64,000 nucleotides of DNA from Lytechinus pictus. Its lineage: Eukaryota. The notes below the pieces were generated by a model that was not told the origin of the DNA, did no database searches, and worked only from the letters and a program-made list of their open reading frames with translations. The position numbers and the translations under genes were made by a program. The DNA is taken from assembly GCF_037042905.1 (NCBI RefSeq), contig NC_087250.1:25732001-25796000 (forward strand). The letters run 5' to 3'. Shown piece after piece: positions 11,043-60,886 of the stretch (the first letter of the stretch is position 1; each line of letters opens with the position of its first letter).

Positions 11043-11394
11043 CAACGTCTTTTCATATAACCTTTCATTTGGGTCCCGGAAAGGGGTCTTAATCTATACC
11101 CACACTGAATATAAATGTGTTCATTATTATACATATTTTCACTACTGCAAATAAATTCATATTTATAAGTCTATTCATTATTGTAATTATGTTCATTTTT
11201 ATACGCATATTTATTGTTGTACATATGTTCATTTTTATCATTTTCCGCATCCACCGGCTGCGCCACCCCTTTAACTGCAAACATAATGTGCTGTAGTTTT
11301 TGTTGCTGATATTGTTTATGGTTACTTATGGTAATATGACACTTACTTACTTATGGTAATATAACAAAACAAAATAAAGAGCCAATAATGATGT

Positions 11395-12510
11395 AATTGA
11401 TTGCACTATTTGACAAAACTATTTTGGAACGGGAATACCCAGACACAAATTTATGGAAAGGGTTTTTACAATTTCTCCTTTTCCCAATACCTACATATTA
11501 AATAAAACCATTTGTTCTTTAAAAATAAACTTTGCCTTAGAATGGTGAGTAAAAACAAAGAATAATTGACCGACACGATTAAATTGGAATATACAGTGCG
11601 TACCACAAAAAACGAAACCGAGATTTAGCGATGATTTATCATAACTTAATCATAAAAACAATAGACAAATTACCTACCAACGTAAAGCTTATAATCTCCT
11701 CTTTCATCTGATACTACTTAGATTATTCCTCATTCATGCATGAGTGAGCAAAAACAATTCGAAGAAAGGATGTCAAAAACTCATTTGGCGGGGGGTATCT
11801 GAATTTTAAACAGAAAGTCACATGACTAATAAGTTCAATATTTGCTTTTGATTTGATACCTTAATCACAGAAAATGGTCAAGAAATAAAAAAGTTATGTT
11901 CCCTCGAAACAATGCTTGTATTTCCATAATTTCATTAAATAAACGTGTTTTCACCGGTTTCCCACAGAAGCTATCGCACGGTAACAAAATACTTAATGCA
12001 TGGCTGATCGTCGACAAAACGGAGTGTCGAGTGAGTCTGGCCGCTAGCTTGTAAAACCTCTTCATTTCATGAAATTATTGAAGATCAAGCCTTGTTTCAA
12101 ATAACCAGAACTTTCTTATTTCTTGACCATTTCCTTTAATTGAGGTGTCAAATAAAAGAGCAGATATTGAACTTTTTAGGCATGTGATTTTCTTTTTTAG
12201 ATTCAGATAGGCCCCGCCAAATGACTTTTTGGTATCCCCTCTTCAAATTGTTTTTGCTTACTCATGCGTGAAAGAGAAATAATCTAAGTAATTTCAGATG
12301 AAAGAGGAGATTCTAAGCTTTACAATGGTAGGTCATTTGTCTATTGTATTTGTGATTAAGTTATGATAAATCATCGATAAATCTCGGTTTCATTTTTTCT
12401 GGGACGCACTGTATATTACAAATAAAACATACTGATAAAATTGCGCCGCAAGGTTCGTGTATTTTCAAACATCAAGCTTTTGCAGACCGAGAATTGTTGC
12501 TTCTGTGGGC
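11395..12510 (+). repeat. Tripartite module copy split by a Tc1-like MITE
   Basis: AATTGATT 11395; TAAATTGGA ~11580; MITE 11594-12411; TTTTGCA then GACC..GGGC 12485-12510; removing the MITE restores the ~265-bp spacing. Confidence 0.6.
11594..12411. mobile_element. Tc1/mariner-type MITE
   Basis: TA flanks (11592-11593, 12412-12413); CAGTGCGT / ACGCACTG termini; ~300-bp inverted arms. Confidence 0.85.
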
Positions 12511-12851
12511 CAATGTTAACTTCTTTCGGGTTTTATATCTTTACTCACCTTGCTAATAAATATTTTCATTCTTATACACATATTCCTTACTGTAAATAAA
12601 TTCATGTACATATACTTATTCATTATTCTAAATGTGTTCTTTATACGCATATTTATCAGTTGTAAATATGTTCATTTTTACCAACAAATTCTTTATTGTA
12701 AACAAGTTCATTTTTATACACAAATTCTTCTTTTGGAAACAGTACGGGCATCCGTCTGGTGTATTGTAAATACGTTCATTTTTTTTTTATACGCAAATTC
12801 AAAGGAACTATTTTCTAGGTGGACTTGACCTTTGAATAAGGAAAATTAGAT

Positions 12852-25308: not shown

Positions 25309-28300
25309 TTTGATTTGATTTATTGTTTTCTTCTGCATCCATAACATTCGTATAATACATTCTTCATAACATAATAAACATAATATGCTAGCATTTTTGG
25401 CATGAATCATAAATAAAGAGTATTAAAAAGATAATTTCAGACAAAAATGATTAACTATATGATATTCACAATTTGCAGGAGAAGGATTGTCATCATAAGC
25501 AGATTGCTTGAAAAAAATGACAATCCCAAACTTATACTAATTGAATTAATTAATACATTTATAAAGCAGAATGGGCATACATTTTCAAATACGAAACATG
25601 AATTCATGCAATATTATAGTATGAAGATGAAGATGATAAAGCTGAGGGTGACGGTGATATGATGATGTTGATGATGATGATGATGAAGGCCATGGAGATG
25701 ATGGTGGTCATGATGAAGATATTGGTAATGACTAAATCGAAGGAGGAATAAATTCACGATAAAAAGGATACGACACAGAAATTTTACTTCAAATATTCTG
25801 ATAATAACATAGATTTAACGTTTGCCTTAAATGAATGAAGAGACGAAGATTGTTTTACAGGCTCTGGTAGAGAGTTCCACAAATCTGGACCATGGTGTCT
25901 TATGGATCTCTGCGCAATAAGCAATTTAGGGTTGATTAGATGGAAATTTGAAGAGTTACGGGTAGGGTAAGAATGAATAGATGTATTCAGAGTATAAAAA
26001 TTGTGGAATGAAGGTGGGAGCATGTTATTTACGTACTTAAACATAAGTAGTAAACTTTGAAGAGTATTTATGTCAAGTACTGTTAGAGTCTTTAGTTTAT
26101 GGAATAATGGATTTGTGTGTGATAAATATTGGGAATCAGTACAGATTCGAATTGCTTTTTTCTGTAATAAGTATATTGTATTAATTTTAGTTTTTGCACA
26201 TGTTGCCCAAACTATGTTGCAATATGATATATAAGGCAATATTAATGAATTGTAGAGTATGACAAGAGTTGTATGTGGAATTATGTTTTTCATTTTGTAA
26301 AGTATACCAACGTTTCTAGAAATACTAGTAGTTATACAACGTACATGTTCATTCCAATTTAAATTTTCATCTATTGTGACACCTAAAAACTTTGTTTCTC
26401 TTTTCCTGTTGAGAGGAGTATTGTCTATGTTTATATTGTAAGGAAATTCGTTATCATGTGAGTGTGTATGCTTGAAATATATAAAGTTTGTTTTATCTAT
26501 ATTGAGTGAAAGCTTATTACACTTAAACCACAAAGATAGTTTTGGTAATTCACGGTTAATTATATCTACTAAAGTTTCTAAGCTATTATGTGAACAAAAA
26601 ATGTTGGTGTCATCTGCAAATAATACATATGATAATAAAGGTGTTACAGAAGTCAAATCATTGATATATATTAAAAAAAAGCAAGGGGCCTAGGATTGAT
26701 CCTTGTGGAACTCCGCATTGTATTAACTGAAAATCAGAAGGAATATTATTGTGAATTACATATTGTTTTCTATTGGACAAATAACTCTTAAACCAAGATA
26801 GTGTAATTCCGCGAATTCCAAAATTTTCAAGTTTTTTAAGTAATATCTGGTGGTCAAGAGTGTCAAAGGCTTTGCTTAAGTCCATGAATACGCCTATTAT
26901 ATGTTCTTTTTTTGCCATTGCATTTGTAATTTTATCGTATATTTGTATTAACGCCTGATCAGTCGAATGTCCTTTCCTGAATCCATATTGGTTAGAATTT
27001 AGAAAATGAAAAGTATCTAGAAACTTATAAAGTCTATTGTAAATAATCTTCTCTAATATTTTGGAAATGCTGGGAAGAATAGAAATAGGCCTGTAATTTG
27101 TTATCTCATGCGGATTGTCTTTTTTTTTAACAGGATTTACCTTTGCAATTTTTAGGGAATCAGGACATATTCCGGTGCTAATCGACAGATTAAAAATATG
27201 ACACAAAGGAGAGGCAATATAGTGTATGATCTGCTTAAGAAGGAAAGTACTAATTCTATCAATTCCCTGTGATTTGCTTGATTTGAGATTTTTTGTTATT
27301 TCAATTAATTCCTGAACATTTGTTGGGTTAAAGAATAAAGAAGAGTTAATGGGTGTGGGAAGAAATTTTCCAAAATTTTCATCAGTTCTGTCAAGTTTTT
27401 TTGCCAATGAGGGTCCTAAGTTAACAAAAAAGGAATTAAAGGTATCAGCTACATCTTCTGAATTTATCGCAACCTCATGAGCTGTGAAATTATCTTTGGG
27501 TAATATTTTGGGTTTCTTGCCAATCAAATCATTTATAATCTCCCATGTTGCTTTCATGTTTGATTTGACTTTGTAAAGCTTCTCGGAATAAAATAATTTG
27601 CGAGAAGCTCGAATTGTATTGGTTAGTCTATTTCTATAAGTTTTGTATTTATTTTTGTTTTGAATAGAAGGGTTCTTCAAAAATGCCTTGTAAAGTTTAT
27701 TTCGGGTACGTATGGATCTTAAAATTGCTTTAGAAATCCATGGCATTTTTGCCTTCTTTCTTTTGACCAGTGGTATCAGAGGAAAATTTTTCTCGTATAA
27801 TGTCTGCAATTTATTGTTAAAATTTGTGTATGCAATGTTTGAATTAGACTCATGAAATACATCTAACCATTCTTCAATAGCAAGATCCCTTTTAAACGAT
27901 TCAATGTTATTTTGAGATTCTTTTCTATACATTGTCGATTTGAGTATATTTTCTTTTGGAATATCATTATCGCAAAATGAAAAAACCGGCAAATGATCCG
28001 ATATATCAGATATTAACAATCCGCTGGTCATATCTCTGTTTAATATATTTGAAAAAATGTTGTCGATAAGTGTTGATGAATGGCTATCAATTCTAGTCGG
28101 TTTATCTATATGGGGATAATAGCCAAATGAATGCATTGTGTGTAGGAATAAATCATGTTCATTATTTTGGGACAACAGGTTGATGTTAAAATCACCCATT
28201 AAATATATTTGTTTCTCTTCTTTTCTAATAGTATGAAGGCACGTTTCAAGGTCTTCACAAAATAAATTAACTTTATCATGAGGGGGTCTATAAATCAATC

Positions 28301-28721
28301 CAATAATTATATTTTTGCTTTTTGGCTTCGTGATTTCTATGAATAAAGTTTCACTCTGTTTTAATGATATTTCTTTCCTTACTTTGAATTGTAAATGTTC
28401 ACTGATGTAAAATGCTACACCTCCTCCTCTTTGATCTTCCCGGTCACGCCTAATGAGATTATAGTTTTCCAAACTGAATATGTTAGGTGAAGTATTGTGA
28501 AGCCATGTTTCCGTGACACCAATAATGGAAAATTTGAAATTGTTTAAAGTGAAAAGTAATGATTCCAATGACTCAAAATTTTTGTTCAAACTACGAGCAT
28601 TAATATGAAGCAAACTGAATTTATGTTCCATGTCTCTAAATCTAGAAGTAAAATCTTCGGTTGAGTAATAGTTATTATCAGATGATATATTGTTTGTATT
28701 GAAAATAGAAAAAATATCCAT
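25309..28721 (-). mobile_element. CR1/L2-group LINE (Crack/Daphne-like): ORF2 and 3' UTR
   Basis: APE plus RT ORF; 3' end on minus is AATAAA followed by a short (TCAAA)n tail at ~25309-25325. Confidence 0.9.
25784..28721 (-). CDS. LINE ORF2 (APE endonuclease plus reverse transcriptase) with one frameshift at an A8 run (26673-26680)
   Basis: HINARSL, VTETWL, GGGVAFY, IYRPP, MGDFN, SDHLPV (APE); NYRPISIL, QYGFR, DLSKAFD, GVPQGSILGP, FADDT (RT); removing one base restores GPLLFLIYINDL. Confidence 0.9.
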
Positions 28722-29248
28722 GTCATTACTCAGGAGGATAATTTGATATTACCAAAAACTTAAGATTATTGGTATGATATGTGATTTGTGTGTAAATTTT
28801 CTGTGTCATAACAGCAAGATGGTGGTAGTAATGGTGATGAGATGAAGAGAGGATGAAGTTTAAAAAAACTAATAAAGGATGAATGTGAAATCGAATTTGC
28901 TGTTGGTGATTATGATGATGATGATGATGATGAAAATGATGAAAATGATGACAATGATGATGGAGGTGATGATTGGAGAATTGAAATCCTACAACCGGAA
29001 CCTGATAATGAATATACATAATCGAAATGTAATGAACACTCTTATTTCTGAGTGTCTCAGCCATGATTTGTATGCGAAGGAACCTTTTAAACACGAAGTA
29101 TCAGTGGCACTGTAATAATAAAGATACAAAATAAAGGTTTCGATCCTATCAAATAAAAATATACATTTATATATATATTGATATAATTGGTCATCGACAT
29201 CACGAAGTGTCTCAGAGGTCAGTAGTTATGGGTGAGACCTCATCCTAA

Positions 29249-29560
29249 TTGACCTTTGACCCATGACCTTTGACCACATGACCTCATACCAACTTGACCT
29301 TTGACCCGGCCATGACCTTTGACCACATGACCTCATACCAACTTGACCTTTGACCACATGACCTTTGACCCATGACCTTTGACCCGGTCATAACCTTTGA
29401 CCCGGGCAGCCTTTGACCTTTAGTCCAGTCAGCCTTTGACCACATGACCTTTAGCCGGTCAGCCTTTGACCTTTAGCCCGGTCAGCCTTTGACCTTTAGC
29501 CGGTCAGCCTTTGACCGCATGACCTTTAGTCCGGTCACCCACGCCCTTTGACCACACGAC
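29249..29560. repeat. Subterminal TGACCTTTGACC (DR1-like) repeat array, left arm
   Basis: Dense TGACCTTTGACC, TGACCTTTAG and CAGCCTTTGACC units. Confidence 0.9.
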
Positions 29561-30745
29561 CCGATGGTTGACCCAGACTTCCGGTCAGCCACGACGTCAC
29601 CGTGAAATGGTATTACGACGCGGTTATGCAACCACCGTGATGTCATAGAATTACCCTTATCGCACCATCGGTATTGCACCACCGTTGCGTCATCGCCGCG
29701 TATGGGTGGTTTTCGGTCGACCTTATCACACGATGCAGCGACGTTGCACGGGTATTTTTAGCATACGATACGATGCACAAAAACAAGACATCTATACAGT
29801 TTCCTATTTAAAAAGTGATCATTCTCCGCCTACCGGCGGATATGTCAAGCGCCTCGCATGACGTCACCAGCTACGCAAGCATCGTGATGTCATCCCAGGG
29901 AATTACCCTTTACCCGGTATTGCACCACCGTGGCGCAATCGTCATCGCCACGTTTAGGATACGATGCACAAAACAGACGTATGATCTCTACACAGTTTCC
30001 TATTTAAAAGTTATCTTTCTCCGCCTACCAGCAGATATGTCAAGTGCCTCGCGGTTCACGAATCGATTACCCCATGCACGGCCAACGCGCGTCATTGAAC
30101 TTGGGATATCATATTGGAAAGGTGAAAGCCGACTCTCTCTCTGCCTCTTATTTCAACAATTATTGGTAATCCAACGTGTGATTATAATCATGAAAATAGT
30201 GACATCTCAGGCACTACTCCTTCCAGACTTTTCCCTATCAAAACTCTCTGACTTTTTCATACTGTTTTGTTCATCCTTTTCATTTAACTCACATGACCTG
30301 CCCGGCTCTCTGACTCGCAAAAAGTATATTAAAACCAGTAGATATGACTCCTTTAAATCAACTTCATTCATCCGCAGTACAGATGGTGATAACATGAAAC
30401 ACTATACAGTCAAGGGTGATTCTTTATTATTATCATCATTTATTCTATTCCATTTCAATGTAGATAGGTTCAGATAGTGTATAAACAGCAGATTTTGATA
30501 CAAATGTAAATAATGTAAGTTATGTTCTCAAATTATGTTGTAATAACCAAATAATTGTTAACTGTTCATTGTTAATATTAAAGTGAAGTTCTCGTTTTTC
30601 TATTTCTTCGCTTAACTTAATGGATTGTAACACATGTATATGGATGGCATTCAGAAAATATGAACAGAATGAAGTTCAAACTGTCATTTATGTTGACGGC
30701 GTTTTCTTGGATGATTATCATTTGACAAGCATGATGTCTGTGTCA

Positions 30746-31396
30746 TTAGTTGTAGACTCCATCTTCGACCTCCGTTTCTTCTCCACCATCATCATTATCG
30801 TCATCGTCACCTTGATACTGGAATAAACCATCGAATCGTGAACCATGCCTGGCTAACACTCTCTGTACGGCTTTCCGGAATTCCATGCCATTCTCTAATC
30901 TTTCCGAGAGATCGGACACGATGTCACGATTGATGTCAGCGTCTTCGAGGTACACGTTCTGCTGCAAGAACTGAGAGTAAAGATCGAAAAAGATGCGTTT
31001 GACTGCCCAGAGTAGTTTCACGTGAGCCTTTGCTTTAGCGTCTTCTTCTTCCATTCCTTCTGAGATGTATTTCTGATATTTTTCGTCTCTCAAGTCCTTG
31101 GTGGCCGTCATGGCTTGCTCTAACCATCCGCGATAAGCGAGGTTGTCTTCAGTTTCTTCCATGTTTGCTGTCATTGACGATTCGTGTCCATCGCTTTCTG
31201 ATACGCTCGTTTCGGAATCATCGTTGGATTCTTCAACTCTTTGCATTTGAGAGGATGGGTCGGAGTCTTCATCTTCACTCGTTTCTTGTCCAGTATCATG
31301 CTCGTTTTGTTCATGCCTCTGCATATCGTACCTCCTACTAAAGGTTTTATCGCATCGTGAACAAGCATAACGGTTGGACATATCCAACGTATTCAT
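30746..31396 (-). CDS. 216-aa protein: N-terminal C2H2 zinc finger, acidic linker, helical C-terminal domain (probable Maverick accessory protein)
   Basis: YACSRCDKTFSRRYDMQRHEQNEH fits C-x2-C-x12-H-x4-H; ATG start, intact; identical copy at 32384-33034. Confidence 0.75.
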   Translation of the reverse strand: MNTLDMSNRYACSRCDKTFSRRYDMQRHEQNEHDTGQETSEDEDSDPSSQMQRVEESNDDSETSVSESDGHESSMTANMEETEDNLAYRGWLEQAMTATKDLRDEKYQKYISEGMEEEDAKAKAHVKLLWAVKRIFFDLYSQFLQQNVYLEDADINRDIVSDLSERLENGMEFRKAVQRVLARHGSRFDGLFQYQGDDDDNDDGGEETEVEDGVYN

Positions 31397-31500
31397 GTTG
31401 ACTCAATGATTATTTGTTGGGAAATGAAGAAAATTAACGTTCAACCTTGTAATAATACGTAATCATGAAACGCGCGCGAAAGGACTTCGATTACTCACAT

Positions 31501-32279
31501 AATTTTACGGATTCTTAAGGATTTTTACGGATTTTTACGGATCCTTACGGATTTTTACGGATTTTTACGGATCCGTACGGATTCTTACGGATCCTTACGG
31601 AGTTTTACGGATTCTTACGGATTCGTACGGATTCTTACGGATCCGTACGGATTCTTACGGATTCTTACGGATTTTTACGGATTTTTACGGATTCTTACGG
31701 ATTTTACGGATTTTTACGGATTCTTACGGATTCTTACGGATTTTTTACGGATTTTTACGGATTTTTACGGATTCTTACGGATTTTTACGGATTCTTACGG
31801 ATTCGTACAGATTTTTACGGATGCTTTCATATAATCTTTCATATATTCTCAAGGAAAATACATGTATGTTCATCCACATTGGAATGACCCATGCAGCATC
31901 CGTAAAAATCGGTACGGATCCGTACGAATCCGTACGAATCCGTAAGAATCCGTAAGAATCCGTAAGAATCCGTAAAAATCCGTAAGAATCCGTAAAAATC
32001 CGTAAGAATCCGTAAGAATCCGTAAAAATCCGTAAAAAATCCGTAAGAATCCGTAAGAATCCGTAAAAATCCGTAAAATCCGTAAGAATCCGTAAAAATC
32101 CGTAAAAATCCGTAAGAATCCGTAAGAATCCGTACGGATCCGTAAGAATCCGTACGAATCCGTAAGAATCCGTAAAACTCCGTAAGGATCCGTAAGAATC
32201 CGTACGGATCCGTAAAAATCCGTAAAAATCCGTAAGGATCCGTAAAAATCCGTAAAAATCCTTAAGAATCCGTAAAATT
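31501..32279. repeat. Two inverted arrays of a 10-bp unit (GGATTYTTAC) around a 69-bp unique spacer
   Basis: ~32 units at 31501-31820; spacer 31826-31894; ~38 reverse-complement units at 31900-32279. Confidence 0.95.
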
Positions 32280-32298
32280 ATGTGAGTAATCGAAGTCC

Positions 32299-32306
32299 TT
32301 TCGCGC
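32299..32306 (+). promoter_or_regulatory. Candidate E2F site upstream of the zinc-finger ORF (mirror copy at 31474-31481)
   Basis: TTTCGCGC matches the E2F consensus TTTSSCGC, ~80 bp before the ATG. Confidence 0.35.
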
Positions 32307-32383
32307 GCGTTTCATGATTACGTATTATTACAAGGTTGAACGTTAATTTTCTTCATTTCCCAACAAATAATCATTGAGTCAAC

Positions 32384-33034
32384 ATGAATACGTTGGATAT
32401 GTCCAACCGTTATGCTTGTTCACGATGCGATAAAACCTTTAGTAGGAGGTACGATATGCAGAGGCATGAACAAAACGAGCATGATACTGGACAAGAAACG
32501 AGTGAAGATGAAGACTCCGACCCATCCTCTCAAATGCAAAGAGTTGAAGAATCCAACGATGATTCCGAAACGAGCGTATCAGAAAGCGATGGACACGAAT
32601 CGTCAATGACAGCAAACATGGAAGAAACTGAAGACAACCTCGCTTATCGCGGATGGTTAGAGCAAGCCATGACGGCCACCAAGGACTTGAGAGACGAAAA
32701 ATATCAGAAATACATCTCAGAAGGAATGGAAGAAGAAGACGCTAAAGCAAAGGCTCACGTGAAACTACTCTGGGCAGTCAAACGCATCTTTTTCGATCTT
32801 TACTCTCAGTTCTTGCAGCAGAACGTGTACCTCGAAGACGCTGACATCAATCGTGACATCGTGTCCGATCTCTCGGAAAGATTAGAGAATGGCATGGAAT
32901 TCCGGAAAGCCGTACAGAGAGTGTTAGCCAGGCATGGTTCACGATTCGATGGTTTATTCCAGTATCAAGGTGACGATGACGATAATGATGATGGTGGAGA
33001 AGAAACGGAGGTCGAAGATGGAGTCTACAACTAA
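32384..33034 (+). CDS. 216-aa C2H2 zinc-finger protein, second identical copy
   Basis: Translation identical to 30746-31396; AATAAA downstream at ~33336 and ~33352. Confidence 0.75.
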   Translation: MNTLDMSNRYACSRCDKTFSRRYDMQRHEQNEHDTGQETSEDEDSDPSSQMQRVEESNDDSETSVSESDGHESSMTANMEETEDNLAYRGWLEQAMTATKDLRDEKYQKYISEGMEEEDAKAKAHVKLLWAVKRIFFDLYSQFLQQNVYLEDADINRDIVSDLSERLENGMEFRKAVQRVLARHGSRFDGLFQYQGDDDDNDDGGEETEVEDGVYN

Positions 33035-34219
33035 TGACACAGACATCATGCTTGTCAAATGATAATCATCCAAGAAAACGCCGTCAACATAAATGACAGT
33101 TTGAACTTCATTCTGTTCATATTTTCTGAATGCCATCCATATACATGTGTTACAATCCATTAAGTTAAGCGAAGAAATAGAAAAACGAGAACTTCACTTT
33201 AATATTAACAATGAACAGTTAACAATTATTTGGTTATTACAACATAATTTGAGAACATAACTTACATTATTTACATTTGTATCAAAATCTGCTGTTTATA
33301 CACTATCTGAACCTATCTACATTGAAATGGAATAGAATAAATGATGATAATAATAAAGAATCACCCTTGACTGTATAGTGTTTCATGTTATCACCATCTG
33401 TACTGCGGATGAATGAAGTTGATTTAAAGGAGTCATATCTACTGGTTTTAATATACTTTTTGCGAGTCAGAGAGCCGGGCAGGTCATGTGAGTTAAATGA
33501 AAAGGATGAACAAAACAGTATGAAAAAGTCAGAGAGTTTTGATAGGGAAAAGTCTGGAAGGAGTAGTGCCTGAGATGTCACTATTTTCATGATTATAATC
33601 ACACGTTGGATTACCAATAATTGTTGAAATAAGAGGCAGAGAGAGAGTCGGCTTTCACCTTTCCAATATGATATCCCAAGTTCAATGACGCGCGTTGGCC
33701 GTGCATGGGGTAATCGATTCGTGAACCGCGAGGCACTTGACATATCTGCTGGTAGGCGGAGAAAGATAACTTTTAAATAGGAAACTGTGTAGAGATCATA
33801 CGTCTGTTTTGTGCATCGTATCCTAAACGTGGCGATGACGATTGCGCCACGGTGGTGCAATACCGGGTAAAGGGTAATTCCCTGGGATGACATCACGATG
33901 CTTGCGTAGCTGGTGACGTCATGCGAGGCGCTTGACATATCCGCCGGTAGGCGGAGAATGATCACTTTTTAAATAGGAAACTGTATAGATGTCTTGTTTT
34001 TGTGCATCGTATCGTATGCTAAAAATACCCGTGCAACGTCGCTGCATCGTGTGATAAGGTCGACCGAAAACCACCCATACGCGGCGATGACGCAACGGTG
34101 GTGCAATACCGATGGTGCGATAAGGGTAATTCTATGACATCACGGTGGTTGCATAACCGCGTCGTAATACCATTTCACGGTGACGTCGTGGCTGACCGGA
34201 AGTCTGGGTCAACCATCGG

Positions 34220-34531
34220 GTCGTGTGGTCAAAGGGCGTGGGTGACCGGACTAAAGGTCATGCGGTCAAAGGCTGACCGGCTAAAGGTCAAAGGCTGACC
34301 GGGCTAAAGGTCAAAGGCTGACCGGCTAAAGGTCATGTGGTCAAAGGCTGACTGGACTAAAGGTCAAAGGCTGCCCGGGTCAAAGGTTATGACCGGGTCA
34401 AAGGTCATGGGTCAAAGGTCATGCGGTCAAAGGTCAAGTTGGTATGAGGTCATGTGGTCAAAGGTCATGGCCGGGTCAAAGGTCAAGTTGGTATGAGGTC
34501 ATGTGGTCAAAGGTCATGGGTCAAAGGTCAA
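34220..34531. repeat. Subterminal GGTCAAAGGTCA (DR1-like) array, right arm
   Basis: Reverse complement of 29249-29560. Confidence 0.9.
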
Positions 34532-35529
34532 TTAGGATGAGGTCTCACCCATAACTACTGAGGTCAGAGTCAATACAGACTCAAAAAATAATTTTAATTT
34601 GTTAATTTCTAATGAGATGTCAATTGTTGAATATCTCGTAAAATTTCAGTCTTTTATTTTTCTTGATCGATCACTTGTGTTGGTATTCAAAATAAAAAAA
34701 GTAAATTCTAAAAGCTAGAAATTAAACACAAGTTTCTCAAAATTGGTTCATGACCTCTGAAAACATAAGGATGGTTCGTGAAAAGGATGATAAATTAGCA
34801 CATAATGCCATGTACAACCAAAGGGTGGTGCCATAATGGATATACTGCATGCATGCTGGTATAATCACATAATGCATGGTTGCATAGGGCCTATACACAT
34901 AATGGCTGCATACAGGTTGATTCAGCAAAAGCTGGTGGATGTAAGAAAGGGAAAATTTCACAATGTCCAATAAATTTGCTACTATTGTCAATAAATGTCT
35001 GGACGATCAAATGATTATTATAAAACCTGCCCTGACCTGGCAACGGGTAATACATGGACAACGTGATGAGTTTATTCACCGATTAATAACAATGGAACAC
35101 CCCGTCACGTCACATGGCCACCGAGATAACAAGAAACATGTATAAAGGTACGGTCCAGTAAACCGCAATAGGCACAGTTGATATTATCCGGGGACAAAGC
35201 AATGAGGTGTCCCTAAACTCACTCATATAGTGAATTGCAGCAATCAGGAAGTTGATTACATAAAACATTTTTTTTTTTTGTATTTCCCTTCCCTTTGTTT
35301 ATCGATTTAGTCTAATTTTTCACTTGAGGCGCCAAAAACAAGATAAAATAAAATGTAACAATTCGAGCCTTCCAATTTAGAGTTCACTTTTTCCGTAAAA
35401 GATTGATATCAGCTCACGGTGAATAAACTACATCCGCGTGTGCACCTTCACATTCTAGTTCTACAGCAATAAAAAAAAAAAAAAAAAAAAACGAGATCCA
35501 CAAAATACATCCACATGTCTTCATATTAG

Positions 35530-37489: not shown

Positions 37490-38362
37490 TTATTCTTGGT
37501 AACGCTTCCATTCTGTTGATTCTTTTGATTTGGTGTACAGGATAACTTTTGTGCCGGCAACAACTATTTTGGTTGAAAGGTTGTCTTCTTTCCTGAATTT
37601 GTACGCTTTTGCAGCCAGAATTCCTCTCTCAGCCTTCAACACTGGGGGTAAGTCGGTGCGAACACTGATTCTTGCTTTGCTGGGTTGCTCATTTCCTGGA
37701 CGTTGTGGCCTCCTTTCAAATGCAGATAGCAACCGATTCCTTTGGGCCATGTAAACAAACTTGGCGATGATAGGCTCTGGTGCGTTGGTGTTGGTGGCTC
37801 TACGAGTTGATGGGAGACGGTGAGCATTGATCAAGGCTACGGACTGTGCTTCCTCGTCACTCAAACCAAGCGAAATAAATACATCACGAAGAACATTCAT
37901 AACATTTTCATTTTCTTTTCTTTCCAACCCATAAAACAAGAGATTTGATTTCCTTTGATATATTTCGGATAGTAGTAGCTTTTCCTTTAGAGAGTCGATC
38001 TCATCTTGTAACTTTTTTTCCAATTGAGGCAGTTTTTCTTTCTCCAGATTCAGCATTCGTACAGAATTATCCTCAGCAGCCGCTTCTAGATCCGATACTT
38101 TTTTCTTTATTGAAGACAGGTCTGTGTGAATGATATCAAGTTTAGCACATACCCGACTAGAGAACTCGGAGAATGATTTTTGAAGATCCGCGATCGATGC
38201 CTCCATAGCTGGCATGTTGTCGGCATTCATGTGCTTACGTGGCGCCGTTGGGTCTACCTGAAGTGGGCGTTGGCTCGATGCACTAGCACGCGCACTGGTA
38301 TTGGTATTGCGTTGATGTTGACCGGGTCTGGATTTACTTCTCAGATCGTATCCTTTCTTCAT
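37490..38362 (-). CDS. LINE ORF1 (L1 ORF1p / Transposase_22-like: coiled coil, RRM, CTD)
   Basis: ATG at 38362 (MKKGYDLRSK); heptad coiled coil, then RKSNLLFYGLE..AHRL..PIIAKF..R..ISVRTDLP; YY1-like AAAATGGCG ~38495 in the presumptive 5' UTR. Confidence 0.85.
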   Translation of the reverse strand: MKKGYDLRSKSRPGQHQRNTNTSARASASSQRPLQVDPTAPRKHMNADNMPAMEASIADLQKSFSEFSSRVCAKLDIIHTDLSSIKKKVSDLEAAAEDNSVRMLNLEKEKLPQLEKKLQDEIDSLKEKLLLSEIYQRKSNLLFYGLERKENENVMNVLRDVFISLGLSDEEAQSVALINAHRLPSTRRATNTNAPEPIIAKFVYMAQRNRLLSAFERRPQRPGNEQPSKARISVRTDLPPVLKAERGILAAKAYKFRKEDNLSTKIVVAGTKVILYTKSKESTEWKRYQE

Positions 38363-38584: not shown

Positions 38585-38973
38585 TAAATGAAAGTAGTTG
38601 CAGTAAAACACAGATTTCGTGAGAAAGACTGTAAAACCAAGGTTAAGTATTACTATATTAACGTGGATCTAGATCTGGCACAGTTATATAAACTGAACTT
38701 TGTGAAATCATAAAATCTAAGCTGAAAAATGATCACACTGAAGATCGCCAACACAGATAGGCACACGTGGGACAGTTGTTGGAATAAGGACCCGACGGAA
38801 GTGCCCAAATCCGCGCTTATTTTGCTTATTTCTCAGCAATTACAAAATTTCTTCCAGAATCCTTTGGCACATATTTCTTATTCATACAAACAGACACTTG
38901 GGTGGTCATTATATTGGATTCGGTAAAAAAAGTCATTTTGAGATCGTTACCACAACTGGAATTTATTTATCTT
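38585..38973 (-). mobile_element. MITE, inverted copy of the 51762-52150 family
   Basis: GTAGTTGCAGTAAA..GATCTAGATCTGG..GATCGTTACCACAACTGGAATTT is colinear with the reverse complement of 51762-52150. Confidence 0.7.
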
Positions 38974-46399: not shown

Positions 46400-49300
46400 A
46401 TTCAAATATAGTGAAATAGTCTTCTTGGTAGCCTATTATCTACTTTATGCATCTTTTCATTTAATCGGATTTTTCCTGCTATCTCTCTTTTAAACACATG
46501 AATAAGACCGTTTTCTCTTCTATCATACTGATTTAAATTTCTTTCCAGAACAAACTTATAAATACACCATAGAGCTATTACTAAAACGATGTATAAATCC
46601 TCATGTTCTAGAATGAATAGACAATTTATGTCGATTTGTATTTATTTATGAAAAACATCTTTGATAACTCTTTGTAAATAAACAAAAAAGGGTTCATTTA
46701 ACTCGCAAGTGAAGAATGCATGGGTAAAATCTTCTTCGACTTTACAGTGTAAGCATTTGTTATCGTTTGCAACACCCCATTTATGGAGGTTTCGCTGGGT
46801 TGGTAGTAAGTTATAAAAGAATTTGAAACAGAACTCACGTAATTTGTTTTCCTGAAGATTCAAGAAAAATCTTTTGAAAACATTCGACCATGTAATATCA
46901 ATAGACACGTTTGTTTCCCAAAATAAACAGTGCATATTTACGAATGGTATCTTATTACAAGACATAATTAATCTATGAAATGATTTACTGCTTAAATCTT
47001 GTATCAGTTTTTCTTTTTTGTTAACAATAATACAAGGGACTTCCATTCTTTTATTTAGTGGGTATTCTGCGTTCATATTTGTGATTTGATGTATCCATAC
47101 TTTTGGTATAGCTTGCTGGAGTTTCAAATAATCAAATATCAAATTTGCTTTACCTCTCTTCGTTCTCAACACACCAAAAGAAATTTATGTTCTCTTGAAT
47201 GAGCCGTTTTCAATTAAATCATTTAAAAATAGAATTCCAGCATTATACCAGTCTCTATAATAAAACATACTGCCATTAAACATTATACTTTGATTAAACC
47301 ATAAAATCTCTCGAGCTTTTTCATTTTCATGCTCTTTATATTCCAGACATACCTGAGACCTTATCATCATCCATGCTTGCAGCACCTCTCCATAAAATAT
47401 AGGTATTTTTTTTTCTTTTATAGTTCTAAGAATGGTTTTATCATAGTTACAGTTGAGCAATAACTTTATGCCACCTAACTGATCAAACCAAGCATTACTC
47501 ATGGTTTTCCATATACTATTAATCTCACTAGCTTCGTTCAAAAATTGACCCAGCCATTTCAATCTAAAACTCAATAATTGATAGTTTATGTCAGTCATGT
47601 TGATACCTCCATGTACACAACTTTTCGTTAAAACCACTCTTTTTAGTTTTTCTGTATTTGAACCCCAAATAAATTTGAAAATGATTCTATTTAATTTCTT
47701 TAAAAATTCATCTGGTATAGTGTCTATAATCATCAAATGAATGACTTGACTGAGTGCTAAAGATTTCAATACTATGACCTTTCCAAAAATTGTTAGGTTT
47801 CTTCTTTTCCAACTCTGAAGTATTTTTTCTAGTTTCATTAACCTATTCTTCCAGTCTGTTTTCAACGCCAGATCTTTATCCATATTGATATTATGACCCA
47901 AATATTTGACTGGTTTATCACTCCACATCAGGTCATAAGCCGATATATTCCATTTCAGATGTCTATCTCCAATCCATATCATAACACTTTTATCTTTATT
48001 CAATTGTGGCCCGGCTATTTTGCCAAATATTAACAATTCATCCAAAATATTTTGAAGAGAAGACGGATCACGAACAAAAAAACAAGGTGTCATCTGCATA
48101 TTGAAGTAACTTAATTTTCGTCTCGCAATTATTCATCTCAAGTTGTTTTATTTCTTTATTTTTTCTTATTCTATTTGCTAACAATTCGACAGCAATAATA
48201 AAAAGCAGAACAGACAAAGGACACCCTTGTCTTACTCCTCGTTTAACATAAAATGATTCAGACATCCACCCATTCACTATAACGCTACTTTGAATGTTTG
48301 TATACAGGATCTTCAGCCAGTTTCTAAAGGATGGTCCCAAATTAACCTTTTCTAAACATAAGTTTAGAAAATTTAAGTTTAGACAGTCAAATGCTTTTGT
48401 AAAATCTACAAGCATAATAGCACCGGTTTCATCTTTATTTATAAGGACCTGAATAATATCTTTGACTAGTCTCACATTATTGGATGCTAAGCGCCCTTTC
48501 ACATAACCTGTTTGAGTTTCAAGAATGATGTGGGAGAGAATCTTTTGAAGGCGTGTTGCCAAGACCGCCGCTATTATTTTGTAATCATAAATAAGTAGGG
48601 TTATAGGTCGCCAATTATTTAGGTCTTGGTTATCACCTTTTTTAAACAGAAGTGTGACAAGACCTTTTCTTTGTGTGTTCGACAATGTTCCTGTTGAGTA
48701 ACATTTGTTTAGAGCTTTTACAAGAATTTATTTTATGTGTGACCAAAACATCTGGTAAAACTCTATTGGTATTCCGTCGGAACCTCGGGTTTTATTTTTA
48801 CACATTGAGAAAACAGCACGTTTACATTCTTCTACGGTCAAAAGACCTTCACATGTGTTCATTTCTTCTTCGTTTAAATGATTAACAGTTTGGTTTAAGG
48901 TATAATTCTCAATTTCGTTTACATCAATGTCTTCTTTCTCGTACAACTTTGTATAATAAGAAAGTACTTCATTTATAATATCGTCATTTTCAACTAGAGT
49001 ACATTTTCCATTCTTCGATTTAAGTTGTTTTATTTCTCTTTTTTTCATATTACTTTTCTTTAAATTCAAAAAGTACCTTTTGTTTTTTTCGCCCTCCTCC
49101 ATCCACTTCATTCGGGCCCTGATGCCCGCTTCTCTCGCTTCTTATATATATATTTTTTCTAACTTATCTTTGACCGTAGTATACTCATTTTGTATTTCAA
49201 TTTTATCCAAATTACAATCCAACTGTCTTTGTAATGAAGTAAGCCGTTTTTCTAATTTCAGTTTGTTGTCTTTGAACATTAAAGACTTCTTTTGACAGTA

Positions 49301-50206
49301 ATTTTGTGTAAATTCACGGATTTTAATTTTCAACAGTTCCCATTTATCTATAACTGAGATTTGCATCTTCGCAATCCTGGAAATCAATTCAATTATTTGG
49401 TTTTGGTAATCTTTATCTTTTAAAATAGAAGTGTTCAACTTCCAGAAACCTGGACCTCTTTTCAATTCTTTAAATCTGATTTTCAACGAAATCGCATTAT
49501 GATCAGCACGTATCGCTGGCCTAATATCAGTTGACAGTGTTCTGTTATAAATATTAGAGTCAACCAGCCAGAAATCTAATCTCGAAGCTCTTTTAAGGTA
49601 AACATTACGCCAAGTAAATTGTTTGACGAGAGGATGTGTCAGTCTCCACACGTCACGTAATTTGTGTTTCACAATTATCTTTCGCAAATATGTAACTCTA
49701 CCATAGTAATTATTTTGGGTACCTATTATATCTTTTCTGGAATTCAGAACACAATTCCAGTCACCTCCAAAAATTATCTCGGTGTTTCGTGAGTTTTCAC
49801 CAAAGCAATGTTTTTTAATTTCATGAAAAGTTTCTTGAAAAAATCTTTCTCTGCATTTTCGTACTGTGGGTGCATATACATTCCCTAGCATTAAACTGAT
49901 ACCGTTTATCTTAACCTGCAGCAGAAGTAGTCTACCATCCTTTTCATATTTCTTCTGAACTTTTTCTAGAGTAACATTCTGTCGAAAAAATATTGCTACC
50001 CCACACGAGTGATTGCTTCCATGAGAAAAGAAACATGGACCACTTCATTCATTTCTAACAATATTTTCTATATCACAAGACCAAAATGTTTCCTGTACGA
50101 ATATAATGTCGGCGTTTTGGTGTCTAATCCAGCGGAATATTTGATTCCGTTTTTCTTTGTTTCTCAATCCACGTACATTTAGGCTCAGTAAATGACAACT
50201 CTCCAT
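46400..50206 (-). pseudogene. Tx1-like ORF2 (APE, RT, C-terminal zinc finger) with several frameshifts/stops
   Basis: Starts MESCHLLSLNVRGL..VQETF at 50206; NVYAP, GGDWN, SRLDFW, DHNAI, GPGFWKLN, WRPITL, DFTKAFD, GVRQGCPLS, QYADDT, CLHCKVEEDFTHAFFTC across 5+ ORF pieces; end approximate. Confidence 0.9.
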
Positions 50207-50262
50207 AGAAGTAGTAGATGATAGTTGTAGGATGCTATTTTGCCACTATACTACTTCTTTTT

Positions 50263-51483
50263 TTATCCTCTTTTACTAGATTTCTGTTTCCTTTTTACCA
50301 CTGTTGCTTTCTGTGGTACATATGCTTTGTTTGATTTGATAAGCTCCGGTGACTCTGGTGACAATTCGCTTTCGTTATCATCAGATTCTGCGGTTGAGAA
50401 TTCGTCGTCATGTGAAACGCTCGCATCATCTTCTACGTCACGGTCAGCTGGTTGTCTCCTCGAGCTCGTTGAGACGTATTGCGTAATCTTGGATTGCGAT
50501 CGTTGGTTTGGCGTCGTGTTGCTTGGTTGCTGCTTTTGTTGTGAAGCTACCTGAGAAGTAGTGGGTGTGTCGCACAGCTGATCACGAGTAATTGATAATG
50601 ATGGGTATTGGGTGATGTCAGAGGTCTCCTGCTGCATGCCCGACGGTTTCGGCTGGTGAAGTGTATGATGCTCCGAGGACAAGGAAGCCTGGTTGCGCTC
50701 AGTATCGACGAAGTGATCTATTGCTGCCTGGGTCCTGGGGGTGATATCCGCCGAGTTGCGCTGATCAAACTGCGAGGTGGGCGTGGTCGGGAGGTTGGAA
50801 TCAAGCTGGATGTGTCCGGGTTGTTTACATCGGATGCATAATACTGGGTTAGTACATCTTGAACGGTGGTGACCTTCGTTGAGACAATTCGAGCAGATCG
50901 TTTTCTTTGTAGTTGGGGGTATTTGTCCGGTATGAAAAACTCTACCTCTGAAGAGCCCGAAGGTCATGAAGCGGGGAAGGGGTTGGGGTGGTTGTTGGAT
51001 GTAGAGAACTCTATCACCTGTTAGGCAATGTGTCAGTTGTCCGTCTACGCGAAGTCGTTGATATGTAGTTTTTCCTACAACTTTACATTTCCTCTTTTCA
51101 AGCTCATCACATATCAGGGACTCGTGGGCGGAGAGGGGAATGTCCTTGACCACCAGGCGCAAACAGTCGTCCTTTCCTTCACCAAGAAAAGGGTTTGTAT
51201 CATAGACAGCAATGTTGACATGCCGTACATTCAATCCTTTTGTGATGAGATCTATGCGCGCTTTGTGAGAAGATAGATACAGTCGCCATAGACCTCCAAT
51301 TTTCTGGATTCCTCTGATTCCATTGCTTAACGTAGACCGAGCTATACATTTGAAAAGTTCTTCACTTGTCAATACTTTGTCATTTGTAGAAGGTATATCT
51401 TTATGTTTGATGAACACTGGTTTACCCCCGATAGTATCTACGGGAGGCTTGAATCCGGCTTTGTCTGCGTATGCAGTTGCCAT
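50263..51483 (-). CDS. Tx1-like ORF1 (gag-like, CCHC zinc knuckles)
   Basis: 406 aa; CSNCLNEGHHRSRC and degenerate CIRCKQPGHIQLDS; LTGDRVLY motif; directly upstream of ORF2. Confidence 0.85.
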   Translation of the reverse strand: MATAYADKAGFKPPVDTIGGKPVFIKHKDIPSTNDKVLTSEELFKCIARSTLSNGIRGIQKIGGLWRLYLSSHKARIDLITKGLNVRHVNIAVYDTNPFLGEGKDDCLRLVVKDIPLSAHESLICDELEKRKCKVVGKTTYQRLRVDGQLTHCLTGDRVLYIQQPPQPLPRFMTFGLFRGRVFHTGQIPPTTKKTICSNCLNEGHHRSRCTNPVLCIRCKQPGHIQLDSNLPTTPTSQFDQRNSADITPRTQAAIDHFVDTERNQASLSSEHHTLHQPKPSGMQQETSDITQYPSLSITRDQLCDTPTTSQVASQQKQQPSNTTPNQRSQSKITQYVSTSSRRQPADRDVEDDASVSHDDEFSTAESDDNESELSPESPELIKSNKAYVPQKATVVKRKQKSSKRG

Positions 51484-51761: not shown

Positions 51762-52150
51762 AAGATAAATTCCAGTTCTGGTAACGATCTCAAAATGACT
51801 TTTTACAAAATCTAATATAATTAACTAAGTGTCTGTTTGTATGAATAACAAATATGTGCCAAAGGATTCTGGAAGAAATTGTGTAATTGCTGTGGAATAA
51901 GCAAAATAAGCGCGGATTCGGTCACTTCCGTCGGGTCTTTATTCCAGCAATAATGATACACTGTCCCACGTGTGCCTATCTGTGTTGGCGGTCTTCAGTG
52001 TGATAGTTTTTAGCTAGATATTATGATTTCACAAAGTTTAGTTTATGTAACTGTACCAGATCTAGATCCTCGATGATATACTGTCAATAAGCCTGGTTTT
52101 ACAGACTTTCTCATGAAATCAGTGTTTACTGCAACTACTGGCATTTCTCT
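51762..52150 (+). mobile_element. TTAA MITE whose left end lies inside the Tx1 flanking duplication
   Basis: AGATAAATTCCAGT ... ACTGGCATTTCTCT-TTAA termini; absent from the paralogue at ~54490. Confidence 0.7.
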
Positions 52151-60372: not shown

Positions 60373-60886
60373 AGGCACATACATTCGTAATTCCGAAGCT
60401 TCGTTATTCCGAAGGTTCGGATATTACGAAGGTTCGTTATTCCGAAGGTTCGTATTTCCGAAGGTTCGTATTTCCGAAGGTTTGTAATTCCGAAGGTTCG
60501 TTAGTCCGAAAACGAAATGAGGTTCGTAATTCCGAAGGTTCTTTACTCCTAAAACGAAGTGAGGATCGTAATTCCGAAGGTTCGTTAATCTGAAAACGAA
60601 AATATTTATTCCGAAGGTTCGTTAGTCTGAAAACGAAATGATTAACAAACCTTATTTCGTTTTCGGACTAACGAACCTTCGGAACAACGAACCTTATTTC
60701 GTTTTCGGATTAACGAACCTTATTTCGTTTTCGGATTATCGAACCTTCGGAATAACGCCACAAATGTTCGGATTAACGAACCCTTTTACGTTTTCGGATT
60801 AACGAACATCGAGGTATAGGCAATTTACGTGTTTTGGAATTGCGAACCTTCGAAATACAGAACCTTCGGAAATACGAAGTGTAACC
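60373..60886. repeat. Foldback element built of ~16-17-bp ATTCCGAAGGTTCGT repeats
   Basis: Tandem units on plus ~60385-60640, reverse-complement units ~60645-60880; ATTCTA on both flanks. Confidence 0.8.

Follow-up and report, generated by a model that had tools for sequence, protein, structure and literature searches.

Polintons, or Mavericks, are the described elements closest to the one reported here. Mavericks are 12.7–24.6 kb long, end in (AGT)2//(ACT)2, are flanked by a 6-bp target-site duplication (TSD) and carry terminal inverted repeats (TIRs) that measure 46–1,447 bp in vertebrates and have the end motifs (AGT)2 or (AG)3 (PMC8097293); the genes of Polintons have been listed elsewhere (PMC4028283). 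Non-autonomous Polintons are already known as a category and exist by name as Polinton-1N1_DR and Polinton-N1A_NV of Repbase (PMC9341505, PMC11296320). Here we describe a nearly perfect palindrome with one zinc-finger gene in each arm, located in a 64,000-nucleotide stretch of the genome of the sea urchin Lytechinus pictus (assembly GCF_037042905.1, contig NC_087250.1, positions 25,732,001–25,796,000 of the forward strand; hereafter the window, in which plain positions are counted from the first letter). The element resembles Polintons in its (AGT)2//(ACT)2 ends, its 6-bp TSD and a terminal sequence in common with a coding Polinton of the same genome. Unlike them, it has no gene for protein-primed PolB (pPolB), integrase, ATPase, protease or capsid, its own gene is absent from the Polinton that we examined, and its family members, at 2.5–6.9 kb, and its arms, at 2.6 kb, depart from the element and TIR lengths given above. 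Polinton-N1A_NV, unlike the element, has a capsid gene. The element is not an autonomous Polinton. We read it, with a probability of roughly 0.72, as a young insertion of a Polinton/Maverick satellite mobilised in trans, whose palindromes would come from template switching at central arrays.

Foldback transposons have long arms with internal tandem repeats, as this element does. Transpovirons of mimiviruses are small, linear and TIR-bounded, with an SF1 helicase, about six open reading frames (ORFs) and short TIRs (PMC8877843, PMC5499653). Like them, the element is bounded by TIRs and has a conserved zinc-finger gene, and it would likewise be a parasite of a larger partner, in their case a DNA virus; the differences are their SF1 helicase, short TIRs and giant-virus host; no SF1 (Tlr1-like) helicase gene was found among the Pfam-scanned ORFs of the element. 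A viral Foldseek search gave only weak fold matches to giant-virus C2H2 proteins (best E 0.06), with no homology to the transpoviron protein found and no direct comparison made. Snap-back defective viral genomes, described mainly for negative-strand RNA viruses, share with the element complementarity over nearly the full length and, as we infer for our case, dependence on the replication machinery of a helper (PMC13506859). They are non-coding and derived from the helper itself, whereas the element is DNA, integrated in the germ line, coding and, beyond its ends, not derived from the examined helper. Our literature searches listed no account of palindromic gene-bearing Polinton satellites; they did not extend to Repbase or to Kapitonov and Jurka 2006, where similar elements may be described.

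The element occupies positions 29221–34559 (5,339 bp), begins with AGTAGT, ends with ACTACT and has one GAGGTC on either side (29215–29220 and 34560–34565). A preliminary description, made from the letters of the window alone, gave the same termini and duplication and the right overall span, 29215–34565, but took in both copies of GAGGTC. An ungapped mirror comparison showed that the element is self-complementary across nearly its whole length: 29221–31803 matches the reverse complement of 31977–34559, making 2,583 bp per arm with two substitutions, at 29356/34424 and 31764/32016. The near identity of the ~2.6-kb arms noticed before thus stands, and the second substitution is added to the single one then seen. 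Each arm contains imperfect subterminal repeats with the unit TGACCTTTGACC (29236–29537 on the plus strand; 34243–34544 on the minus strand), an outward-pointing ORF of 216 codons (30746–31396, minus; 32384–33034, plus; the two copies identical) and, upstream of the gene, a 10-bp tandem array of the TTACGGATTC type. The arrays differ in length between the arms, with 32.2 copies on the left (31505–31826, plus) and 37.8 inverted copies on the right (31898–32275, minus). Between them lies a unique spacer of ~71 bp (31827–31897), so that the 69-bp unique centre described earlier was about right in size but sits off the mirror axis, between unequal arrays.

The insertion target is a repeat upstream of LINE ORF2. 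Pieces of ORF2 (endonuclease and reverse transcriptase) and the upstream region occupy 25784–29214 on the minus strand, and the same repeat resumes to the right of the element, where we traced it through its paralogues from 34566 as far as 34900 (minus). In 32 of 37 paralogous copies of this host repeat, the sequences matching the two flanks overlap by exactly 6 bp, with GAGGTC present once; of the other five, one overlaps by 5 bp, one is split by 1.2 kb and three have no partner. One empty-site copy (G000:C3:81643508-81644083) is 100% identical to both flanks. These empty sites indicate that the TSD is real and the insertion very recent, as the preliminary description, which also suggested looking for empty-site alleles, had proposed. 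A double insertion at one target was ruled out, the centre of the element containing neither a third GAGGTC nor an element end. The same evidence bears on whether the palindrome is a fold-back artefact of assembly or sequencing, which we consider the least probable of all the readings weighed here. The arms are 99.9% alike and no spanning raw long read was seen; however, the flanks are unmirrored and, put together, reconstitute a known empty site apart from the duplicated 6 bp, the arms differ at two sites and in array length, and dozens of further copies have TSDs of their own and a common spacer.

These further copies were found with several probes. A 19-letter end motif had 145 matches in the genome, compared with one for a control. 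We paired 78 of 100 listed ends into 39 pairs, leaving the others single; 37 of these pairs span 2.5–6.9 kb (median 5.1 kb), one spans 16.9 kb and one 26 kb. A search with the arm yielded ~20 loci at 87–96% identity, most in both orientations (22 of 219 candidates scored), and a protein search, by hand count among 150 of 299 candidates, yielded at least 51 divergent gene pairs, nine of them in one tandem cluster. Of seven pairs whose TSDs we checked, six have exact ones and one has an extra ACT in front of an exact one; two further pairs also have exact TSDs. The central spacer is conserved in 18 of the 19 centres examined, on different contigs. The element belongs to a family of about 50 palindromic units with a common spacer, and the other palindromic copies with different TSDs that the preliminary description proposed to look for do exist, which, together with purifying selection on the gene (below), leaves the reading as a one-off defective product unsupported.

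Several members depart from the common pattern. The tandem cluster (G000:C17:8136542-8181441; L025, L034, L035) packs nine palindromic units into ~45 kb; the ends recur, the flank is ATACGC throughout, and the whole is a local amplification after insertion. The 26-kb structure (G000:C6:21765963-21792011; L031–L033) has family ends, one TSD (TACATG), two palindromic cores that are 99% identical and ~11 kb of unrelated sequence; it could be captured host DNA or a nested rearrangement. The right end of L026 (G000:C8:28570235) carries the extra ACT ahead of its TSD, which would fit slippage in the trinucleotide end during protein-primed initiation. Some spacers (centres L003, L004, L022 and L029) contain an extra perfect hairpin with stems of 13–26 bp, absent from the window copy, and the L024 centre is unrelated and 190 bp long. 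At three loci of the P0003 subfamily (G000:C4:16281144, C5:45622891 and C15:18525298) the fold-back lies within the gene, near codon 51, making a second amplified fold-back point.

The 16.9-kb end pair (G000:C6:1299810-1316732) brackets a PolB match. This Polinton, hereafter the helper, has the TSD CATATT and TIRs of ~540 bp and, by Pfam, encodes an rve integrase (E 1e-10), a Pox_A32 ATPase (E 1e-7) and PC4; two further kinds of ORF without Pfam matches we take from their motifs to be protease and capsid. Among 33 ends compared, one satellite copy shares 57 identical nt with the helper's left end and a different copy shares 43 with its right end. Its similarity to the window copy is limited to the terminal repeats, at 77–85% identity, and includes the outermost ~150 bp (29221–29370, plus, with the counterpart ending in ACTACT at 34410–34559, minus); between satellites and helper the common terminal sequence amounts to ~60–150 bp. 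Polinton termini are the origin for the protein-primed polymerase and the substrate of the integrase, and the left terminus of the element probably has both functions. In 15.3 of the helper's 16.9 kb, taken in three pieces with a gap within PolB, blastn, tblastn and profile searches found no zinc-finger gene, and no array, spacer or other internal similarity to the satellite was found either. Judged by these comparisons, the satellite appears to keep the helper's terminal ~60–150 bp only, plus a gene of its own, encoding a C2H2 finger, an acidic linker and a helical domain, that the examined helper lacks. The two helper ends (L052 and L053, at 1299810 and 1316732) differ at 7 of their first 28 bases, each resembling a different satellite subgroup; ends may have been exchanged between helper and satellites.

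The 6-bp TSD would also suit a foldback-type non-autonomous element of a cut-and-paste transposase such as IS3EU/GingerRoot, for which such duplications are typical and whose termini are TA..TA (or TG..CA) (PMC10045372). The ends of our element are AG..CT instead, built from (AGT)2, the commonest motif reported for Mavericks (PMC8097293), and no transposase is linked to them. Up to 57 nt of identity ties these ends to an element that encodes PolB and integrase, where the preliminary description had allowed for a link to some non-Polinton transposase. A cut-and-paste origin is largely refuted and, to our mind, very improbable. The earlier assignment to Polinton-type ends, and to a non-autonomous element with a coding partner in the same genome, was borne out.

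Whether the element could instead be a direct copy-back or near-total deletion of an autonomous Polinton, one with the zinc-finger gene in its end region, depends largely on what the Polintons of this genome contain. The ends are those of a full Polinton, the core modules of vertebrate Mavericks have accessory regions on their flanks (PMC8097293), and the recurrent fold-back inside the gene could be read in the same direction. Our comparison covered one of about 18 PolB loci nearly whole, plus one end of a second, leaving about 17 outside the examined set; ten PolB loci were taken at ±1.5 kb, too short to include ends, and the Polinton locus at C3:320-340 kb showed no related ends or gene. On the other side stand the absence of the gene, array and spacer from 15.3 kb of the helper, the selection acting on the gene across satellite lineages, the existence of single-gene satellites, and the fact that none of the 150+150 gene matches listed (from 299 and 1,785 candidates) lies within 20 kb of a listed PolB match. 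Since only the terminal ~60–150 bp are common to both and the zinc-finger gene is absent from the 15.3 kb of the helper examined, the element did not arise from that helper by deletion or copy-back; the helper's TIR stops at ~540 bp, and the near-total internal deletion put forward in the preliminary description finds no support for this partner. For autonomous Polintons in general we regard such an origin as unlikely.

The gene is the only ORF of the element with a Pfam match. Its single C2H2 finger (aa 10–33) scores below the Pfam cut-off (E 1.4e-4) and is followed by an acidic linker and a predicted helical domain (aa ~84–192). A Pfam scan of both ORFs longer than 200 aa in one arm found no PolB and no rve integrase, in keeping with what had been noted from the letters; a genome-wide PF03175 search had no match at the locus, and no element ORF has a size or family fitting an ATPase, protease or capsid; the second ORF, of 211 aa at 29842–30477, has no Pfam match. 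Nearly identical proteins in the public record are labelled Lytechinus pictus. Purifying selection acts on the satellite gene: 21 distinct family ORFs give a pN/pS of 0.34, a value that pools non-independent pairs; dN/dS is 0.11/0.70 against L048, a P0003-type copy, and 0.03/0.29 between the foreign homologues L049 and L050; and ~129 of the 150 gene matches listed (hand count; 299 candidates) are free of internal stops. Relatives reach down to 35% identity. A profile search returned 42 representatives at E<=1e-30, nearly all alike in size and coverage, two of them multi-finger proteins; ten that we looked up fell into eight nameless clusters and two with uninformative names.

In one raw RNA run, of which ~6% was covered, 66 reads fell on 29900–31490, deepest over the ORF and in both directions; none of the 66 reaches 99% identity. 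The family is likely transcribed, the reads defining neither the strand nor the source copy. None of the records of family sequence is registered as RNA. Searches of viral_contigs with the single protein or an alignment gave no relatives, the ESM Atlas returned generic C2H2 clusters and nothing for the helical domain, and Rfam had no match. An AlphaFold model was of low confidence (pLDDT 59.5, pTM 0.25); with it, viral Foldseek gave no match at E<=0.001 and VIA-align found only generic helical hairpins (best Z 8.2), which indicate no function. The satellite's own cycle is the most likely target of the protein, through array binding or through modulation of the helper or the silencing machinery; binding of the 10-bp arrays in particular we consider possible but less likely than not. 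In the public gene models P0013 and P0016, the first 65–90 residues are those of the satellite protein and the remainder comes from a host gene, sialyltransferase-like in one case and hydroxylysine-kinase-like in the other; this may be promoter or exon donation or an annotation error.

The palindromic form itself can be followed through the family. For 14 of the 15 arm pairs compared, no arm at another locus comes as close as the partner does (loci within 30 kb excluded): eight of the 15 show no difference in 1.09 kb, compared with medians of 3.0–4.3% to other arms, and older-looking copies have arms diverged by 5–10 differences in 1.09 kb. The same end variant occurs at both ends in 38 of 39 end pairs (chance 0.12), with 37/37 among satellite-type pairs and 0/1 for the helper. 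The remaining arm pair of the 15, C17:2977, lies outside the set of 39 and is a chimera: its arms are 3.8% apart, each lies 0.3–0.4% from a different locus, there is one TSD (GTTATA), and the spacer is of the left-arm type, which places the crossover in or beside the right array. Array motif counts differ between arms (39/15, 32/5 and 67/71) while the unique sequence does not.

Template switching in the central arrays would cover identical arms, chimera and unequal arrays together, and we propose that it takes place during strand-displacement synthesis by the helper's protein-primed polymerase. The polymerase would proceed through one arm and the spacer and some way into the second, inverted 10-bp array; within the arrays the new strand would switch template, fold on itself and be extended along the arm that it had made first. 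The outcome would be identical arms, a divergent pair of genes and arrays of unequal length. A switch onto another satellite molecule would give a chimera, and the helper integrase would insert the resulting duplex. The displaced strand of a palindrome may snap back at once into a full duplex origin, a likely replication advantage.

In principle, an ordinary TIR insertion could acquire or keep such symmetry once in the chromosome, either through an inverted duplication or through gene conversion between its arms. Palindromes of this family are unstable in place, as half-lost arms and local tandem amplifications attest, and in two loci one stop, of the same codon type, is found in both arms. 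Yet in all seven pairs checked the symmetry stops where the element does and a direct TSD follows (in one pair behind the extra ACT), and the same spacer recurs at 18 of 19 centres on different contigs. The chimera has retained two unlike arms and the older-looking copies have diverged ones, which argue against strong conversion in place. We judge a chromosomal origin of the symmetry improbable.

A sister lineage shows what a parent of such palindromes may look like. Its palindrome at C18:24397748-24405310 (7.56 kb) encodes a protein of 53% identity, has arms 99.7% alike and ends AGAAGA..TCTTCT, and is flanked by the TSD ACCTTC. The sister end motif has 27 matches at up to two mismatches (control 2), eight of which are an AGATGA variant. 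Once, the sister end lies 3.0 kb upstream of a PolB match, at C2:41965640 (this PolB has a stop), where ~440 terminal bases, compared at one end only, match the sister satellite at 71–90%. At five loci of this lineage a single gene lies between long TIRs (~2.4 kb at C10). By coordinates, the C18 copy follows C10:20378590-20384401 in order across the gene and the first ~490 bp of the second TIR, beyond which it turns into its own mirror image, the build expected of a palindrome copied back from a single-gene satellite. Short single-gene copies occur in the window's lineage too (for example C1:14961273-14964363 and C15:18239402-18242336) and may be parents or deletion derivatives. The snap-back origin raised in the preliminary description thus gains support in the sister lineage and is a proposal for the window's own, and the giant-TIR parent that it envisaged looks like a single-gene satellite and not like an autonomous element. 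Three metagenome contigs from another source contain homologues at 35–40% amino acid identity, two of them with an upstream inverted repeat and array. In L051 (1–324) and L049 (219–366), a short ATGCGT-type tandem array and an inverted repeat precede the homologue, and the start of L051 is a perfect 94-bp mirror of 231–324, as expected of a collapsed palindrome.

The best reading of these results is a multi-lineage family working like a Polinton satellite, with snap-back palindromic forms. Several points weigh against it. Hairpin mismatch repair or chromosomal gene conversion would also equalise arms; it is in the sister lineage alone, and by coordinates, that the single-gene parent is known; the check for the gene covered a single PolB locus among about 18, less 1.6 kb inside PolB, and another Polinton could carry it; the within-family pN/pS draws on non-independent pairs; and mobilisation in trans and extrachromosomal forms were not observed, the case for mobilisation being made from the ends and TSD. 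Not every carrier fits, either: the L048 homologue has no mirror arm and no recognised end and possesses an extra ORF of 168 aa. The two gene pairs at G000:C20:8818179-8820910 and C17:9749496-9752503 are convergent, unlike the divergent pairs of the family. The extra ORF of L048 (L048:1205-1708, minus) has no Pfam match and lies downstream of the single P0003-type gene, followed by TGACGTCA-rich repeats. A broader proposal, which we advance tentatively and at slightly less than even odds, is that marine invertebrates house an old and so far undescribed class of Polinton satellites, with several lineages each tuned to the ends of a different helper, one common C2H2-helical gene, the central array as a built-in template-switch site and snap-back as a selected replication strategy.

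To our knowledge, Polinton replication has not been directly observed in animals to date. If this broader proposal is right, the family would be a natural satellite or defective-interfering system of animal Polintons, archived in the germ line, and would give indirect proof of their linear, protein-primed extrachromosomal phase. Elements with the ends alone would narrow what replication and integration require in cis to about 60–150 bp, and their identical arms, chimera and unequal arrays would record the template switches that the protein-primed strand-displacement model predicts. The satellites outnumber the helper by dozens to one. A gene private to the satellite suggests a parasite-of-parasite conflict, like that of phage satellites and transpovirons, and in the host genome the satellites are a source of unstable palindromes and seem to be fused to some gene models.

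The rest of the window contains other repeats. On the minus strand, 37490–38362 is an ORF1-like coiled-coil gene, which we take to belong perhaps to the host LINE, and 46642–51483 is a second, fragmented LINE, presumably L1/Tx1-like, with a zinc-knuckle ORF1 (weak Pfam support). Small foldback-like elements lie at 11083–12727, with 271-bp inverted arms containing 18/36-bp repeats, and at 60381–60875, with inverted arrays of a 16/42-bp repeat. A 124-bp inverted repeat, 94% complementary, joins 38776–38899 and 51827–51950, 12.9 kb apart.

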